The notes under the pieces are model-generated. The model searched no databases and was not told where the DNA came from. It saw only the letters and a program-made list of their open reading frames with translations. Shown in pieces: positions 4,424 through 13,894 of a DNA stretch of 64,000 nucleotides; positions within the stretch are counted from its first letter, which is position 1; every line of letters begins with the position of its first letter. The stretch comes from Anaeromyxobacteraceae bacterium (GTDB lineage: Bacteria > Myxococcota > Myxococcia > Myxococcales > Anaeromyxobacteraceae). The position numbers and the translations under genes were made by a program. The DNA is taken from positions 576,001 to 640,000 of the forward strand of contig JASGHJ010000002.1 of assembly GCA_047602405.1 (NCBI GenBank). The letters are read 5' to 3'.

Positions 4424-4489
4424 GCGGGCATCTTAGCCGAGGTTCCGCCCCGCTTGATCCCGGCGTGCGGGAAGGCTACCAACGGACGC

Positions 4490-5548
4490 GTGTCGGCGCT
4501 GGAACAGCTGGGGTGGGGCCCGTTCTTCGACGGGCAGCTCACCGACGAGGAGCGGCGGGGGCTCGTGCCCGGCCGCGTCCTCGCCGACCTCGGCCCCTGG
4601 CTCGTCGTCCGGTACGCCGATCAGGACCGCAACACCATCGTGCCGGGGAAGATCCGCGGGACCGCGGCGGCGCCGGTGGTCGGCGACTTCGTCCTCGCGC
4701 CCCCCGTGCCGTCGCCCGGCGTGGCGCGGGTCCTCGCCCGCCGGAGCCGCATCTCGCGGAACGTCGCCGGCCGGCAGGTGGGCGAGCAGGTGCTCGCCGC
4801 CAACGTCGACGTGGTGTTCGTGGTCGACGCGCTCGACGCCCTCTCCGGCGACATGGTCCGCCGCATCGAGCGCTCGGTCGCGGCGGTGGTGGCGGGCGGC
4901 GCGACGCCGGTCGTGCTGCTCGGGAAGAGCGACCTCGCCGACGAGCTCGAGCCGTTCCTCGAGGCCGCCCGCGCGGCGGCGCCCGGCGTGGAGGTCCGCG
5001 CGGTCTCGGGCAAGCGCGGGATCGGCGTCGACGGCCTGCGCGCGCACCTCGCGGCGGGCCGCACCGCCGCGTTCCTGGGCCCCTCCGGCGCCGGCAAGTC
5101 GACGCTCGTGAACGCGCTCCTCGGCGAGGACGTGCAGGTGGTGGGCGGCGTGCGCGAGCGCGACGGCCGCGGCCGGCACACCACCACGACCCGGCGGCTG
5201 TTCCCGCTCACCGGCGGCGGCGCCGTCGTCGATGGCCCCGGGATCCGGGAGCTCAAGCTCTGGGACGGAGGCGGGCTCGAGCGCACGTTCGAGGAGGTGG
5301 CCGAGGTCGCCGCGCGCTGCCGGTTCAGCGACTGCGCGCACGCCGGCGAGCCGGGCTGCGCGGTGCGCGAGGCGCTCGAGCGCGGGGCGCTCGAGGAGGA
5401 GCGGGTGGCCGGCTACCTGAAGCTCGGCGCCGAGGCCGCCGCGCAGGCCGCGCGGCGAGCGGAGCCGAACCGCGCGGAGCGCAAGCGCTGGGAGAAGGAG
5501 ACGACCCGGGCCCTGCGGAAGCTGCAGAAGGGGCGGGGGGAGGACTGA
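4490..5548 (+). CDS. rsgA: Ribosome small subunit-dependent GTPase A
   Basis: OB-fold PVVGDFV, AANVD, circularly permuted GKSD / GPSGAGKST / GRHTT / DGPG, Zn finger CRFSDCAHAGEPGC; GTG at 4490 (LEQLGW N-terminus). Confidence 0.93.
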   Translation: MSALEQLGWGPFFDGQLTDEERRGLVPGRVLADLGPWLVVRYADQDRNTIVPGKIRGTAAAPVVGDFVLAPPVPSPGVARVLARRSRISRNVAGRQVGEQVLAANVDVVFVVDALDALSGDMVRRIERSVAAVVAGGATPVVLLGKSDLADELEPFLEAARAAAPGVEVRAVSGKRGIGVDGLRAHLAAGRTAAFLGPSGAGKSTLVNALLGEDVQVVGGVRERDGRGRHTTTTRRLFPLTGGGAVVDGPGIRELKLWDGGGLERTFEEVAEVAARCRFSDCAHAGEPGCAVREALERGALEEERVAGYLKLGAEAAAQAARRAEPNRAERKRWEKETTRALRKLQKGRGED

Positions 5549-5578
5549 GCTCCCTCTTCAACCCCCGATCCCCCCCCA

Positions 5579-6829
5579 ACCCCGATCCCCCCAGCCCCAG
5601 AGGCTTCCTCGGAGCAGGGGGCGCCCGCAGGCCGACGATCGCTCTTTTGGGGTGAATTCACCCTGCGTGTCGTGGCGTGCGGACCAGGGCGGGGGCGCGT
5701 CGGGCACGCTTCGACCCGAGATCGTTCACATGGGATGGAACGCGAACAGACCACTCCGGCGCCGCCGGAGCAGTCGGTGAGTTTCGGAGGTCGGGCGGCC
5801 CGCGCTAGACAGGCGGGGCGCAGGCGGCGCCGAGCACGGCGCCCATGGCCCAGGTGCCGGGCGGGAACACGACGTTCCACATGCCCTTGCGGAACAGCTC
5901 GAAGGCCTTGCGGTACGCGTCCTGGAACGCCTTCAGCTGCTGCTGCGCCTCGATCCGCTTCCACCGGTCGGACGCCGCGATCTTCGGGTTGAGCTTGCTC
6001 GGCGGTTCCTTCCCGGCCGGATGCTGCCACCACTGCTGCCGGAGCACCCGCCGCAGCCCCGCGAACTTGCGCCGCTCGCCGTCCTCGGTGCGCGCCGCCT
6101 GCTTCTCGAGCGCCGCGAGCGCGCCCTTCACCGACTCGCGGTACCGCTCTGCCGAGAAGCCCTTCGGCGGCACGAGCGCGAGCACGGCGCTGTCGGGCAT
6201 GTTCCCGTCCTTCGAGAAGAACATCTCCGGCCGCTCGTACTCGCGCCCCGTGCCGAGCTCCTCGAACGAGGACCAGAGCCCGGGCCAGTGGCTGCCGTGC
6301 TCGACGAGCCCCGCAGCGACCGGGTTCGCGAGCGTGTAGGCCGCCTTCGCGATGACGGAGCCCTCGTCCTCGAGCGAGACCGCGCTGTAGCTCCCGGGGG
6401 CCCAGGCCGACTCGAAGCGTTCGTGGAGGGTGTTGAGGAAGAGCGCGAGGTTCATGTTCAGCTCCTGGGCGAAGCGCGGGAGCTGGGCGAAGGGGTCGGA
6501 GAGGATCAGGTGGTAGTGGTTGGAGACGACGCACCAGGCGTGAAGCTCGATTCTTGTGTCGCCGGGCGGCGACGGCGAGGAGGTAGCCGAAGGCGTTGTT
6601 GAGCCGCACGGAGGGCACCATCAGGAAGAGCCGGTGCAGGCAACGGCGGGTGAACAGGTAGGTCTTGCCCGGAAGGATTCTGGCGGGGTGCGGTCATGGC
6701 CTCCCGCGCATTCCACGCACCGTGCCGCTCCCAACTCCCTGGATTCCCAGGCCCCCGCCACCCGCACGCCGGCCGTTCCGCGGACCACCGTCCAATCGGC
6801 GGACCTCTGGGGCAGGGGGGGATTGGGGT
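5579..6829. mobile_element. Putative HUH (RAYT/IS200-like) transposase element with imperfect terminal inverted repeats
   Basis: Left ACCCCGATCCCCCCAGCCCCAGAGG (5579-5603) vs reverse complement of 6804-6829 ACCCCAATCCCCCCCTGCCCCAGAGG, enclosing a single HUH transposase gene. Confidence 0.6.
5805..6697 (-). CDS. HUH tyrosine transposase (REP-associated/IS200-like, Y1), interrupted by two +1 frameshifts
   Basis: Reconstructed MTAPRQILPGKTYLFTRRCLHRLFL...IELHAWCVVSNHYHLILSD (HUH)...AAYTLANPVAAGLVE (catalytic Tyr, NPV.AGLV); GGGAGG RBS; extra bases at ~6551 and ~6678. Confidence 0.85.
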
Positions 6830-6920
6830 AGGGGGGCCGCGGGGGGAGCCGGGCCACCCGTCCCCCGCCCGCCTACCTCCGGACCCTCCCGCGCGCGGCC
6901 GGGAGGCCGCACGTTGAGTC

Positions 6921-7667
6921 GTGACGACCGCCAACGAAACCCCCTGGGAACGCTTTCTGCTCGCCTGCTGGGCCCTGTGGGCCGTCCTCACGCGGGACGA
7001 CGTCGCCGCAGCGGTCCGCAGGCTGCACGACCGCGGGGATGGCGCGGCGCCGGACGGGCGCCCGCCGCCGCCACCCGAGCCCCGCTGGTCGCAGCCCCCC
7101 ACGCCACCGCCTCCGCCGGCGTCGGCCACGATCCTCATGCCGCCGGAGCCGGAGACCGCGCCGACGCCCGCGCCCCCCATCGCGCCGCCGTCCCCGCCCC
7201 GCGAGCCGAGCCTCACGCCCATCGGGCCGATGCCCTTCGCGGACAAGCAGGCGGAGGGCCCGCGCGCCGTCGAGCTGCTCGCGCTGCTCCAGCGGGAGGG
7301 CCGGCTGCTGGACTTCGTCGAGGAGGACCTCGGCGGGGCGAGCGATTGGGCGATCGGCCAGGCGGCGCGCGAGGTGCACGCCGGCTGCCGCCGCGCCGTC
7401 GCGCGGGTCTTCGCGCTCGAGCCGGTGCTGCCGGGCGGGGAGGGCACCGAGGTGACGGTCGAGCGCGCGCTCGTCCCGGGGCTCGTCACGCTCCGCGGCG
7501 CCGCGCCCGGCGAGGCGCCGGTGCGCGGGCGGCTGCGCCACCACGGCTGGCGCGTGCGCGACGTGCTGCCCGCGCCGCGGCTCGCGGATCCGAGGGTGGT
7601 GCAGCCGGCGGAGGTGGAGGCGGCGGGTCCCGCGGCGGAGGCGGGGGAGCCGGCGTCGCCGGCCTAG
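6921..7667 (+). CDS. DUF2760 domain protein with Pro-rich linker
   Basis: ELLALLQREGRLLDFVEEDL...IGQAAREVHAGC...GRLRHHGW...VVQPAEVE. Confidence 0.8.
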   Translation: MTTANETPWERFLLACWALWAVLTRDDVAAAVRRLHDRGDGAAPDGRPPPPPEPRWSQPPTPPPPPASATILMPPEPETAPTPAPPIAPPSPPREPSLTPIGPMPFADKQAEGPRAVELLALLQREGRLLDFVEEDLGGASDWAIGQAAREVHAGCRRAVARVFALEPVLPGGEGTEVTVERALVPGLVTLRGAAPGEAPVRGRLRHHGWRVRDVLPAPRLADPRVVQPAEVEAAGPAAEAGEPASPA

Positions 7668-10451: not shown

Positions 10452-11408
10452 ATGTCGTGGAGGGAGTTCCTCTCCGGGGTGAAGGGGGAGATCACCCGCG
10501 ACAACGTCACCGACATCGCGGCGACGGTCACCTACTACGGCGTGCTCGCGCTCTTCCCGTTCCTGCTCTTCCTCGTGGCGCTCGTCTCGGTCGTCATCAC
10601 GCCGCAGGATGCCGAGCAGCTCGTCCAGCAGCTCGCCCAGGTGGCGCCGCCGGCGGTGACCCAGATCGTCGGGGACCGGATCCGCGACCTCGGCGCCCAG
10701 CAGAACGTGACGCTCCTCGGCTTCGGCGCGCTCGGCGCCATCTGGGCGGCCTCCGGCGGCGTCATGGCGCTGATGCGGGCGCTCAACGTCGCCTACGACG
10801 TGAAGGAGGGCCGGCCCTGGTGGAAGGTCCGGCTCATCGCGCTCGGCATGACGGTGGGCGCCGGCGCGGTCGCGCTCGCGGCGGCGCTCGTCGCCATCGC
10901 CGCGGCGCCGATCGCCGACGCGGTCGGGGGCACGCTGGGCGCGGCGATCGGCTGGCTGCGCCTCCCGGTGGCGGGCGTCCTCATGATGCTCCTGTGGGCG
11001 GTCACCTACTACCTGCTCCCGGACGTGGAGCAGGACTTCAAGTTCATCACGCCCGGCTCGGTGATCGGCGTCGTGGTCTGGGTGGCCGCGAGCTGGGGCT
11101 TCTCGAAGTACGTGGTCCACTTCGGCTCGTACGACAAGACGTACGGCTCGCTCGCCGGGATCATCGTGCTGCTCCTCTGGATGTGGCTCTCGACCCTCGT
11201 GCTCCTCGTCGGCGCGGAGGTGAACGCGTTCATCGAGCACCGCTCCGAGGAGGGCAAGCGCGAGGGCGCGAAGTCGATGGCGGACACGGGCACCACCCCC
11301 GTGACCGGGAGGGACCGTGCGGCGGCCCCGAGACCACGCGCGGGCCTCCTCACCCTCGGCGCCTTCGTGGCCGGGATCCTGGTGGCGAGGCGGAAGGCGC
11401 CCGCCTAA
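10452..11408 (+). CDS. YihY/virulence factor BrkB family membrane protein
   Basis: AATVTYYGVLALFP, ALNVAYDV, YYLLPD, YDKTYGSLAGIIVLLLWMW, GAEVNA. Confidence 0.93.
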   Translation: MSWREFLSGVKGEITRDNVTDIAATVTYYGVLALFPFLLFLVALVSVVITPQDAEQLVQQLAQVAPPAVTQIVGDRIRDLGAQQNVTLLGFGALGAIWAASGGVMALMRALNVAYDVKEGRPWWKVRLIALGMTVGAGAVALAAALVAIAAAPIADAVGGTLGAAIGWLRLPVAGVLMMLLWAVTYYLLPDVEQDFKFITPGSVIGVVVWVAASWGFSKYVVHFGSYDKTYGSLAGIIVLLLWMWLSTLVLLVGAEVNAFIEHRSEEGKREGAKSMADTGTTPVTGRDRAAAPRPRAGLLTLGAFVAGILVARRKAPA

Positions 11409-11418
11409 GCTCCGCGGC

Positions 11419-12399
11419 ATGCGGAAGAAGCCCCGCCTCGGCATCTCGTCCTGCCTGCTCGGCAACAACGTCCGGTACGACAGCGGCCACAAGAAGGACG
11501 ACTTCCTCGTCGAGACGCTCGGCGACTTCGTGGAGTGGGTGCCGGTGTGCCCCGAGGTCGAGGTGGGCATGGGCGTCCCCCGCGAACCGATCAGGCTCGT
11601 CGGCGACCCCGCGGCCCCGCGGCTCGTCGCCGACCGGAGCGGCAAGGACCACACCGAGGCGATGCGCGCCTGGGCCGAGGAGCGCCTCGAGAAGCTCGCC
11701 GCGCTCGACCTCGTCGGCTACGTGACGAAGAAGGACTCGCCGTCCTGTGGCCTCGCGCGGGTGCGGGTCTGGTCCGGCAAGAAGGCTCCCGCTCCCGGAG
11801 CGGGCTCCGGTCCTCCGCGCCGCGAGGGCGTCGGCGCCTTCGTGGCGGTGCTCCAGGAGAAGCTGCCGCTCCTGCCGATCGAGGAGGAGGGCCGGCTCCA
11901 CGACCCGTGGCTCCGCGAGAGCTTCGTCGAGCGCATCTTCGCGTACCACCGGTTCAAGGAGGCCCGCGAGGCCGGCATGGACCGCGGCGGGCTCGTCGCC
12001 TTCCACACGCGGCACAAGCTCGCGCTCCTCGCCCACAGCCCCGACGCGTACCGGAAGCTCGGCCGCCTCGTCGCGGGCCTCGCGAAGGGCCAGAAGCTCG
12101 ACCCCGTGCTCGACGCCTACGGCGCGGGCTTCCTCACCGGGCTCGCCGTGCGCGCGTCGCGCGGCAAGCACGTGAACGTGCTCCAGCACATGGCGGGCTA
12201 CTTCAAGGACGTGCTCCCGCCCGCGGAGCGCAAGGAGCTCGAGGGCCTGGTCGCCGACTACGGTCGCGGCCTCGTGCCGCTCGTCGTGCCGCAGACGCTG
12301 CTCCGCCACCACGTGCGCAAGCACGGCGTGGCCTACCTCGCCGACCAGACCTACCTCGACCCGGATCCGAAGGAGCTCATGATCCGGAACCACGTCTGA
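11419..12399 (+). CDS. ybgA: DUF523/DUF1722 (YbgA-like) protein
   Basis: GISSCLLG..VRYD.GHK, VCPEVE.GMG.PR, KKDSPSCG, FH..HKL.LLAHS, NVLQHM.GYFK. Confidence 0.9.
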   Translation: MRKKPRLGISSCLLGNNVRYDSGHKKDDFLVETLGDFVEWVPVCPEVEVGMGVPREPIRLVGDPAAPRLVADRSGKDHTEAMRAWAEERLEKLAALDLVGYVTKKDSPSCGLARVRVWSGKKAPAPGAGSGPPRREGVGAFVAVLQEKLPLLPIEEEGRLHDPWLRESFVERIFAYHRFKEAREAGMDRGGLVAFHTRHKLALLAHSPDAYRKLGRLVAGLAKGQKLDPVLDAYGAGFLTGLAVRASRGKHVNVLQHMAGYFKDVLPPAERKELEGLVADYGRGLVPLVVPQTLLRHHVRKHGVAYLADQTYLDPDPKELMIRNHV

Positions 12400-12406
12400 G
12401 CCCCGC

Positions 12407-13894
12407 GTGACGGTCCCCGCCCAGCGCATCCGCGCGCTCAACGCGGCGCCGGTCCGGCGCGACGGCGCCTACGTCCTCCACTGGATGACCTCCGCGCGCC
12501 GCGCGCGCTTCAACCCCGCGCTCGAGCGCGCCGCGGAGCTCGCGCGCGGGCTCGACCGGCCGCTCGTCGTGCTCGAGGCGCTCCGCATCGGCTACCCGCA
12601 CGCCTCCGACCGGCTCCACGCCTTCGTGCTGCAGGGCATGGCCGACAACGCGCGGCGGCTCGAGGGGAAGGCGACCTACCACCCCTACGTCGAGCGCGCG
12701 GCGGGGGAGGGGAAGGGGCTCCTCGAGGCGCTCTCCGCGAAGGCGTGCGTCGTGGTGGGCGACGACTTCCCGACCTTCTTCCTGCCCCGCATGCTGGAAG
12801 CCGCCGGGAGGCGGCTCGGCGAGCTCGGCGTGCGTCTCGAGGCGGTCGACGCCTCCTGCATCGTCCCGTTCCGGCTCGCCGGGAAGGACTTCCCGACCGC
12901 GTACGCCTACCGGCGCTTCCTCCAGAAGCACCTCGTCGAGTGGCTGGAGAAGCTGCCCGTCGAGAACCCGCTCCGGAGGCTCCCCGCGCCCGTCGCGCTC
13001 CCGCGCGAGGTGCTCCGGCGCTGGCCCGCGGCGACGCTCGAGGCGCTCGACCGGCCCGGGCCGCTCGTGTCGGGCCTCGCGATCGACCACGCGGTCGCCG
13101 CCGTGGAGGAGCGCGGCGGCGCGGCCGCGGCGGAGGCGCGGCTGCGCGGCTGGCTCGAGGGCGGCCTGCCGCGCTACGAGACCGACCGGAACGAGCCGGA
13201 CGCGGAGGGCGTGACGAGCGGCCTCTCGCCGTACCTGCACTTCGGGCACCTCGGGAGCTTCGAGGTGGTCTCGACGCTGCTCCGGCGCGAGAAGTGGATC
13301 CCGCCCGAGCACGGCAGGGCCGACGGCGCGCGCGCCGGCTGGTGGGGCCTCCCGGCGCACGTCGAGGGCTTCCTCGATCAGCTCGTGACCTGGCGCGAGC
13401 TCGGGCACGTCACCTCGGCGCACCGTCCCGACCACCAGGCGTACGGCTCGCTCCCGGAGTGGGCGCAGGCGACGCTCGCGAAGCACGCCCGCGACGAGCG
13501 GGAGCACGTGTACGACCTCGCGGCGCTCGAGGGGGCGCGCACCGCCGATCCCCTCTGGAACGCGGCCCAGCGCCAGCTCGTGCGCGAGGGACGGATGCAC
13601 AACTACCTGCGCATGCTCTGGGGGAAGAAGATCCTCGAGTGGTCGCGCTCGCCGGAGGAGGCGCTCCGGGCGATGGTCCGGCTCAACGACCGCTGGGCGC
13701 TCGACGGCCGGGATCCGAACTCATACTCCGGGATCTTCTGGTGCCTGGGGCGCTACGATCGGCCGTGGGGCCCGGAGCGCCCGGTGTTCGGGACCATCCG
13801 CTACATGTCCTCGCAGAACACCGCGCGGAAGGTCGGCGTGAAGCGGTACCTCGCGCGCTTCGGCGAGGGCGGAGCACAGGGGCGGCTGCTGTAG
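12407..13894 (+). CDS. phrB: Deoxyribodipyrimidine photolyase (class II CPD type)
   Basis: SGLSPYLHFG, RMHNYLRMLWGKKILEW, LDGRDPNSYSGIFW, RPW.PERPVFGTIRYM. Confidence 0.92.
   Translation: MTVPAQRIRALNAAPVRRDGAYVLHWMTSARRARFNPALERAAELARGLDRPLVVLEALRIGYPHASDRLHAFVLQGMADNARRLEGKATYHPYVERAAGEGKGLLEALSAKACVVVGDDFPTFFLPRMLEAAGRRLGELGVRLEAVDASCIVPFRLAGKDFPTAYAYRRFLQKHLVEWLEKLPVENPLRRLPAPVALPREVLRRWPAATLEALDRPGPLVSGLAIDHAVAAVEERGGAAAAEARLRGWLEGGLPRYETDRNEPDAEGVTSGLSPYLHFGHLGSFEVVSTLLRREKWIPPEHGRADGARAGWWGLPAHVEGFLDQLVTWRELGHVTSAHRPDHQAYGSLPEWAQATLAKHARDEREHVYDLAALEGARTADPLWNAAQRQLVREGRMHNYLRMLWGKKILEWSRSPEEALRAMVRLNDRWALDGRDPNSYSGIFWCLGRYDRPWGPERPVFGTIRYMSSQNTARKVGVKRYLARFGEGGAQGRLL

Follow-up and report, generated by a model that had tools for sequence, protein, structure and literature searches.

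A Y1 HUH gene region in an Anaeromyxobacteraceae genome raises the question of whether the gene, together with the repeats that flank it, is a mobile element or a resident part of the host. The original prediction for the window (the whole 64,000-nt stretch of DNA analyzed here) was of a tyrosine transposase bounded by terminal inverted repeats, possibly a distinct and poorly described class of single-strand transposon or a domesticated nuclease. Y1 genes between inverted repeats were named TIRtrons or TIRYTs by Di Nocera 2013 (PMC3733652); most TIRYTs were placed in TnpA-Y1 subclass 2.1 (Quentin 2018, PMC6006769), and the group has also been equated with RAYT group 1 (Bertels 2017, PMC5581495). 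Because a tyrosine transposase between inverted repeats has already been described, that architecture is not new, and the class suspected to be poorly described carries a name. Transposon and domesticated nuclease each proved right in part, and the family is best read, from comparison of its sequences, as a rarely mobile, probably host-regulated variant of the TIRtrons.

Organization of the Element in the Window

The genome that contains the window (G000, 6.16 Mb) carries seven copies, W (the window copy), B, Cc, D, E, F, and G. Copies W, B, Cc, and D show 97-98% DNA identity, E stands at 60%, and F and G at 42-43% protein identity. The features of W are listed in Table 1. The longest inverted repeat within 5000-7500 has arms at 5562-5603 and 6804-6845 that are 76% complementary. 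The tandem duplication anticipated at the left end was found, and this C-rich stutter starts 11 nt past the rsgA stop codon. Farther along the window are an ORF at 12407-13894, which we take from its translation to be photolyase-like, and beside it one at 11317-12399, presumably of the DUF523/DUF1722 type.

Table 1. Features of the window copy, with the type III secretion gene loci discussed in the text.
Feature	Position	Strand	Remarks
Y1 HUH gene region	between rsgA (4454-5548) and DUF2760 gene (6921-7667)		gene on minus strand
Tandem C-rich stutter AACCCC(C)GATCCCCCC	5560..5592	+	at and just outside the 3' end
3' inverted end TCCCCCC-AG-CCCCAGAGG	5586..5603	+	core CCCAGAG
140-nt segment	5607..5746	.	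length fixed, sequence locus-variable; contains private palindrome 5650-5663
Internal hairpin ending GGTCTG	5747..5777	-	after stop codon; 3' limit of homogenized tract
Class-2 TnpA-Y1 (RAYT-like) gene	5805..6697	-	296 aa in intact copies
Predicted sigma-54 promoter	6710..6726	-	-24 GGCACG and -12 TGGA variant; ATG 29 nt past GG
Dyad 2	6770..6786	-	centre 52 nt upstream of -24 GG; predicted activator site
Dyad 1	6789..6805	-	centre 71 nt upstream of -24 GG; abuts 5' end core; predicted activator site
5' inverted end TCCCCCCC-TG-CCCCAGAGG	6822 to 6804	-	C-rich extension reaching 6836 (feature 6804..6836)
Type III secretion gene loci	L165 (G000:C1:2176000-2192500), L166:2796-4699, L167:3073-3864		

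The expected enzyme of about 296 aa was recovered in its NHYH and YTLANPVAAGLV motifs on the minus strand, but the window holds no 296-aa ORF, for the gene (read from 6697 to 5805) has two +1 frameshifts, with an extra base at 6678 and another at 6551. Both extra bases change AGATC to AGAATC. Throughout G000 a +1 codon-phase shift was detected at 163/210 informative AGAATC/GATTCT sites, or about 78%, vs. 25/1060 AGATC/GATCT sites, and a relative with about 92% identity has neither extra base in its short-read contigs, in 4/4 runs. The bases at 6551 and 6678 are therefore very likely assembly errors. The window gene was treated as likely intact because the AGAATC signature is assembly-wide and the relative's short-read contigs are without both bases; a true pseudogene was rejected on the same genome-wide signature. 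The 296-aa protein was taken from the intact paralogue P0001 at G000:C2:3257163. The G000 assembly has a systematic one-base insertion at AGATC (less often CGATC or GGATC) that gives AGAATC, and its apparent pseudogenes are therefore to be distrusted.

Inverted Ends and the 3' Segment

The Y1 genes of this family lie between inverted ends, as had been noticed in the window, and the core of these ends is conserved family-wide. CC[CG][AG]GAG occurs 100-135 nt before the start codon in 49/55 dereplicated members (2.7% of control windows), and the inverted core occurs +170 to +270 after the stop codon in 34/54 (control 2-13%). In a held-out set of 40 loci fetched afterwards, the 5' core was found in 34/40 and the 3' inverted core in 30/40. 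Of the eight close copies, seven have the 5' core 114 nt ahead of the ATG and one has it at 113 nt. The family-wide end core is CCN-GA-CC(C/G)AGAG-TA. The C-rich and G-rich arms proposed as the mark of the class do not serve as such, since long C/G runs at the ends are confined to this clade.

The view that the gene is bounded by something other than REP arrays was borne out. All 11 matches of the strict motif TCCCCCC+N2-3CCCAGAG in G000 are located at the ends of W, B, Cc, D, or E. In the same genome CCCAGAG was observed 673 times vs. 616 expected, the end-core 7-mers were not in excess, and no convincing stand-alone inverted pairs of the kind expected for a REP array or MITE were found; the ends are therefore not a REP family. 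Extra end copies occur outside 38/108 5' ends and 36/76 3' ends vs. 33/358 background windows, and these extra cores form irregular tandem arrays. Arrays of the family end core were also seen some 5 kb ahead of copies G and F (G000:C2:3732497-3732636 and C2:3481504-3482400); cargo-carrying composites at these two copies were considered and rejected, the genes between the distant end arrays being ordinary host genes. Among 21 distant homologues, short recurring end motifs of other sequence were seen, but per locus they did not exceed the control (3/21 vs. 1/21). Distant Myxococcota homologues (L145-L151, L153-L157) keep the sigma-54-type promoter and have other end motifs (GAGGTGTCAAACACCTC; GTGCCAC).

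Two perfect palindromes had been pointed out as subterminal features, namely GGGTGAATTCACCC (5650-5663) and CTCCGGC-GCC-GCCGGAG (5754-5770). Both were located there, but a role for them as subterminal hairpins of the transposase was not supported; the conserved palindromes are those at the 5' end, which look like a host activator site. The first palindrome is private to the window copy and missing from the other copies. The sequence CAGACC[AG]CTCCGG occurs five times in G000, every time inside an element, and identity between copies breaks at the hairpin 5747-5777. The segment that separates this hairpin from the 3' end measures 138-141 nt in each of W, B, Cc, w2, b2, and E, and its sequence is for the most part unrelated from copy to copy: it is wholly different between W and B/Cc/D, and also between species at the same locus. 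At three orthologous loci it differs, yet it is common to copies within each genome. No source for the segment was found in G000 or in phages, and 60 family genomes gave only short weak matches. A structured RNA was rejected, as no Rfam match was obtained; 36 3' segments gave a mean folding z of -0.4 to -0.5 and no positional conservation.

The Protein and Its Relatives

No variation was seen among 117 homologues at H60, H62, Y120, N124, P125, or a C-terminal FPxGT; the protein has the motifs H60-x-H62 and Y120-x-x-x-N124-P125 and a 150-aa C-terminal extension. The HUH motif, the Y---NP signature, and the Y1 core fold are those of TnpA-Y1 class 2. The AlphaFold model (pLDDT 91) best matches E. 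coli TnpA-REP (4ER8), then the TnpA of IS608 and ISDra2. The HMM search that had been suggested as a check placed the family under the curated cut-offs of both the RAYT and the IS200 models: NCBIfam NF047646 (RAYT) scored 44-58 bits, under its 80-bit cut-off, for 4/4 proteins, and at E<=1 the sole Pfam match was a sub-threshold Y1_Tnp in 4/4 proteins. The C-terminal half is unclassified; its 150 aa match no Pfam family, and its Atlas neighbours are all unnamed Myxococcota ones, with scores that are leads only.

The family was found in 24/24 genomes of the same genus and in 65/251 genomes of the phylum (E<=1e-20), and 1,412 representative proteins fall below 1e-30. A full-length match is absent from 72,556 plasmids and 50,697 phages. 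The Y1 gene is under purifying selection, with dN/dS of 0.14-0.36 in nine orthologous pairs vs. 0.05 for rsgA, i.e., three to seven times the rsgA value.

As in TIRtrons/TIRYTs, inverted repeats rather than REPs flank the Y1 gene of the family and keep a near-constant spacing to it, and the family shares NHYH, Y---NP, a proximal SS motif, and an extra C-terminal domain. The subclass 2.1 core (about 111 aa, proximal SS motif) was recognized from H60 to Y120, with WPGLWSS after the core. All 20 TIRYTs in subclass 2.1 are reported to have a C-terminal domain like Bac_DnaA_C, HTH_23, or HTH_28 (PMC6006769), whereas Pfam detected no such DnaA_C/HTH domain in 4/4 proteins of the family. The family protein is also longer (296 aa vs. 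a median of 238) and reaches five near-identical copies per genome. Most described TIRtron/TIRYT cases have GGGGWSAS, although unrelated TIRs are listed too (PMC3733652); here the end core is CC(C/G)AGAG, and GGGGWSAS is exact in 5/108 5' ends and present with at most one mismatch in 35/108. With no HTH-type tail and mostly no exact GGGGWSAS, the family is therefore provisionally filed as a TIRtron variant rather than as a member of a group already described. No Anaeromyxobacter entry was found in two supplementary files searched for a placement in subclass 2.1.

Similarities to other groups are partial. The family shares its fold with the RAYT/TnpA-REP genes of REPtrons (groups 2 and 3; PMC2817692, PMC3333891, PMC8266576), among which 4ER8 is the best match, and, as is reported there, its orthologues stay in place in the genome and change more quickly than neighbouring genes, and a flanking repeat is tandemly amplified. 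Unlike REPtrons of these groups, it has no GTAG head (GT(A/G)G REPs) and no high-copy REP family, and its gene is multi-copy and bears the 150-aa extension. The HUH/Y1 chemistry and core fold are those of IS200/IS605 TnpA (2XM3, 2VJV), from which it differs in having Y---NP rather than Y---Q and twice the length. IS200/IS605 elements are described as having neither inverted ends nor target repeats (PMC3333891), whereas the family has inverted ends and occasional flanking duplications. TnpA-Y1 subclass 2.3 (Quentin 2018) is likewise long, multi-copy, and NHYH-bearing without REPs, but the family lacks the 55-aa insertion described for that subclass, and its HUH-to-Y distance is 58-60 rather than about 110.

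A Predicted Promoter Layout in Common with Type III Secretion Genes

Sigma-54 promoters require an enhancer-binding protein, and predicted sites for both occur upstream of the Y1 gene. GG-N9-TG[CT] is located 13-31 nt before the start in 52/55 members (1.7% of control windows) and within 60 nt of it in 21/23 distant homologues. The distance from end core to GG is bimodal, at 82-87 nt (34) and 93-98 nt (15), one helical turn apart. Between the two, and in helical phase, lie two dyads with the consensus GGTCCGC-N3-GCGGACC; a dyad score of at least 10 was obtained inside 30/34 held-out 5' ends and in 0/30 3' ends.

The element has this promoter-plus-dyad layout in common with type III secretion genes of the host. 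In G000, GTCCGC-N3-GCGGAC occurs 33 times vs. 1-6 for other spacers, and 5/29 stand-alone dyads have a promoter match vs. 14/3000 random sites. Among the host genes concerned are sctQ, a FliH/SctL gene before the secretion ATPase, and an FHA/YscD gene. Leaders of sctQ (the best 30 of 46 matches) and of FHA genes (the best 30 matches, of which the final ten are weak and perhaps not orthologues) were scanned with matrices trained on element leaders only; promoter and dyad precede 18/30 sctQ and 7/30 FHA/YscD leaders, with 0/146 and 0/150 in controls. The sctQ/FHA spacings to the -24/-12 element follow steps of about 10.5 nt (51-52, 61-62, 70-72, and 81-84 nt), and the -12 variant TGGA/TGAA is common to host sctQ promoters and copies W and E. 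Since the predicted sigma-54 switch upstream is the same, the host likely turns on the Y1 gene and the secretion genes together. The end core occurs in 0/34 host leaders with the promoter-dyad layout. Dyad pairs are broken on one side in 94 cases vs. 10 compensated, and 10/14 doubly changed pairs are complementary, a slight lean to pairing.

The genome contains rpoN and 38 activator matches. An activator beside the secretion cluster was sought as a candidate and rejected, the nearest one being set apart by housekeeping genes. The dyads are kept in elements of G003, G005, G011, G017, and G049, where sctQ was not found with the query used, and the predicted regulon therefore extends beyond secretion genes. 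When five other genomes were searched with a plain pattern, enrichment was slight (18 matches vs. 11 in the control). The dispersed sctQ, R, S, V, FliH/SctL plus ATPase, and FHA/YscD genes show a tandem dyad, a sigma-54-type promoter, and a TGGA -12 box; they start 27-30 nt past the GG, so that their mRNAs would be nearly leaderless. An unrelated RAYT-like gene of 225 aa (L253:1447-2124; G000:C1:1420870) likewise carries the double dyad, and 29 nt ahead of its start lies a weaker promoter match, GG-N10-GC; two further RAYT-like genes at G000:C2:2439175 and C2:1013669 (L261, L263) have ATCTCTGCCGAATTCAAG-like sequence on both sides in direct orientation.

A comparable arrangement was reported in Desulfovibrio vulgaris, from a related bacterial group, where a predicted sigma-54 activator, DVUA0100, controls type III secretion genes, with predicted sigma-54 promoters and an activator site before the operons (PMC4641369). 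The likeness concerns this general layout, and no transposase is mentioned in the available part of that account. In Myxococcus, needleless type III secretion lyses prey (PMC11804543, PMC12075869).

Fixed Loci and Homogenized Copies

The loci are fixed, and the copies cluster by genome. In the sister genome G010, a flank-matched element is present at the loci of 7/7 G000 copies, the three divergent ones included, and 4/4 tested G000 loci carry the element in G007 and G015. For the four close copies, the flanks of G000 and G010 are 91-95% alike and the CDSs 92.3-92.8%, vs. CDS identities of 97.6-98.8% within G000 and 99.3-100% within G010. The four G000 copies form one clade in the tree (99/98), which groups by genome. 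Pairing by locus was rejected for B+b2 and Cc+c2 (p-AU 1e-91 and 8e-8), the two of four pairs that the test covers, w2 and d2 being identical. In a second case, L127/L136, with one flank in common, the CDSs are 76% identical vs. 99.6% to their own paralogues. As the loci are fixed and identity is closer within than between genomes, the copies have been homogenized in place and are not freshly transposed, a statement that draws on one well-resolved species pair and one single-flank case.

In short-read assemblies from independent studies, G010-type copies form a single collapsed contig that stops at the GGTCTG hairpin, with a depth about 3-6 times that of flanking contigs in 3/4 runs, depth being a weak guide. 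RecA-type conversion, without the enzyme, could be the source of homogenization. Swapping the 140-nt segment needs exchange via about 15-20 nt of end homology, and we therefore infer that end-directed replacement is favoured over RecA. Copies W and B have about 40 nt beyond the 5' end in common (window 6823-6862 vs. G000:C2:3257002-3257037). G010 is without these 40 nt at both loci; the exchange between W and B therefore once reached outside the end.

Signs of Mobility

Comparison of the rsgA-DUF2760 interval in relatives, proposed as a check for an empty site, yielded element-free neighbours in G006, G011, and G019, i.e., at 3/29 rsgA loci, the others showing no DUF2760 nearby. G010 is without DUF2760, and the loss adjoins the 5' end of the element. 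At L008, compared with window 6873-7667, a duplicated 5' end lies about 100 nt after a kinase stop codon (DUF2760 is missing in G010). For locus B no exact empty site was found in 17 distant relatives, the neighbour gene being non-syntenic and no end core following directly after the gene.

Among 80 loci, perfect 35-bp direct repeats abut the ends of L060 and L128, and a 55-bp one is present at L108; 39 held-out loci gave none. Abutting repeats thus occur at 3/119 loci tested, the window locus not among them, and all three come from MAG assemblies. Two candidate duplications were discarded: that of L112 (143+ nt) does not abut the ends, and that of L032 (about 95 nt) is degenerate at a locus with no 3' end. 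L060 interrupts a recombinase zinc-ribbon ORF. Groups of near-identical copies with a sharp 5' boundary occupy unrelated loci in G009 (five copies), G204 (three), and G266 (five and three). The four close-copy loci share no target sequence, and neither an end-to-end circle nor an empty-site joint was seen in short-read contigs. The 35/55-bp duplications and the interrupted gene indicate that insertion is a rare but continuing event in the family, its route being likely other than plain peel-and-paste.

Explanations for the Family

The explanation we consider probable, with some reserve, is a TIRtron-type Y1 gene at fixed sites, with homogenized copies, likely switched on by sigma-54 and the host activator predicted for the type III secretion genes. 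In Y1 chemistry the catalytic tyrosine (Y120 here) would nick single-stranded DNA and then rejoin it. Sigma-54 and the host activator at the dyads would bring about expression of the transposase; the dyads would be enhancer sites of that activator rather than transposase hairpins, leaving the end core CC(C/G)AGAG as the presumed site of the enzyme. Upon activation, Y120 would nick the DNA at the end core or next to it, the two ends being cut on opposite strands, and rejoin it. Such nicking and rejoining would yield the stuttered ends and the deletion beside the 5' end in G010, would exchange whole element bodies between resident sites, and would, rarely, place the element at a new site, flanked by a duplication of about 35 bp.

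A purely selfish, slow IS whose expression is timed through an enhancer taken from the host, whose copies are homogenized by ordinary RecA gene conversion, and which brings no host benefit is an unlikely explanation, albeit one to be taken seriously. The near-identical groups at unrelated loci and the one insertion into a gene would suit it, and gene conversion of IS copies has a reported precedent in Wolbachia wBm (PMC3196728). Yet the loci are kept in all inter-species pairs compared, no plasmid or phage in the sets searched carries a full-length match, and the swapped 140-nt segment, past which homology extends for only about 15-20 nt, is more in keeping with end-directed exchange than with RecA. 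High identity within a genome is usually the sign of recent transposition, but recent insertions made independently in the two species, at an identical set of four hot spots, would require coincidence at 4/4 sites that share no target sequence, and the three divergent copies are common to both species as well; we give this account hardly any credence.

It is quite improbable that the dyads are REP-like hairpins which the transposase recognizes and spreads and some of which landed near secretion genes. They are numerous with the 3-nt spacer, can fold, and stand directly behind a CAGA-like tetranucleotide, as REPs are reported to stand behind GTAG (PMC8266576); against this, the 3' ends contain none, host copies hold helical-phase distances to the -24/-12 element across a family, host leaders lack the end core, and dyad changes are mostly uncompensated. 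A fully immobile host nuclease whose inverted ends are merely regulatory sites would be compatible with the fixed loci, the purifying selection, and a promoter that keeps phase with the core of the 5' end. Against it stand an inverted core at the 3' end too, stuttered arrays, loci that differ between lineages, flanking duplications, and an interrupted gene, and it seems extremely improbable. The TIRtron-type gene at fixed sites remains the reading adopted here.

The fixed-loci homogenization, the predicted sigma-54 promoter and dyads in common with type III secretion genes, and the 35-bp duplications are new features, and the sigma-54 promoter, host enhancer, in-place homogenization, and 35-bp duplications are absent from the available portions of the TIRtron/TIRYT descriptions. 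No description of these features was found in the literature searched on RAYTs, TIRYTs, target duplication by TnpA-REP, and Anaeromyxobacter transposases, which took in few subscription papers, and the sigma-54 regulon survey PMC12316311 does not contain "transposase" as a whole word.

Implications

Near-identical copies in a genome, the measure by which RAYTs are classed as mobile or domesticated, do not necessarily indicate recent transposition. The retention by bacteria of RAYT-like transposases that have ceased to spread calls for an explanation (PMC5581495, PMC6006769). On a rather unlikely reading, the family would consist of domesticated HUH nucleases in the myxobacterial type III secretion (prey-lysis) regulon; once the activator is at work, the enzyme would cut at the ends of its element and swap element bodies and the fixed-length 140-nt cassette between standing sites, possibly taking in outside single-stranded DNA. 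If this were true, a host trigger would be defined for a RAYT-like gene, which would also show replace-in-place movement and long target duplications.

The analysis also yields, as a by-product, a family-wide predicted activator motif for type III secretion genes of Anaeromyxobacteraceae. The likeness of predicted promoters ties the family to the system by which Myxococcus lyses prey (PMC11804543, PMC12075869), and the predicted promoter and enhancer in common with type III secretion offer a specific condition under which expression and activity of the transposase may be sought.
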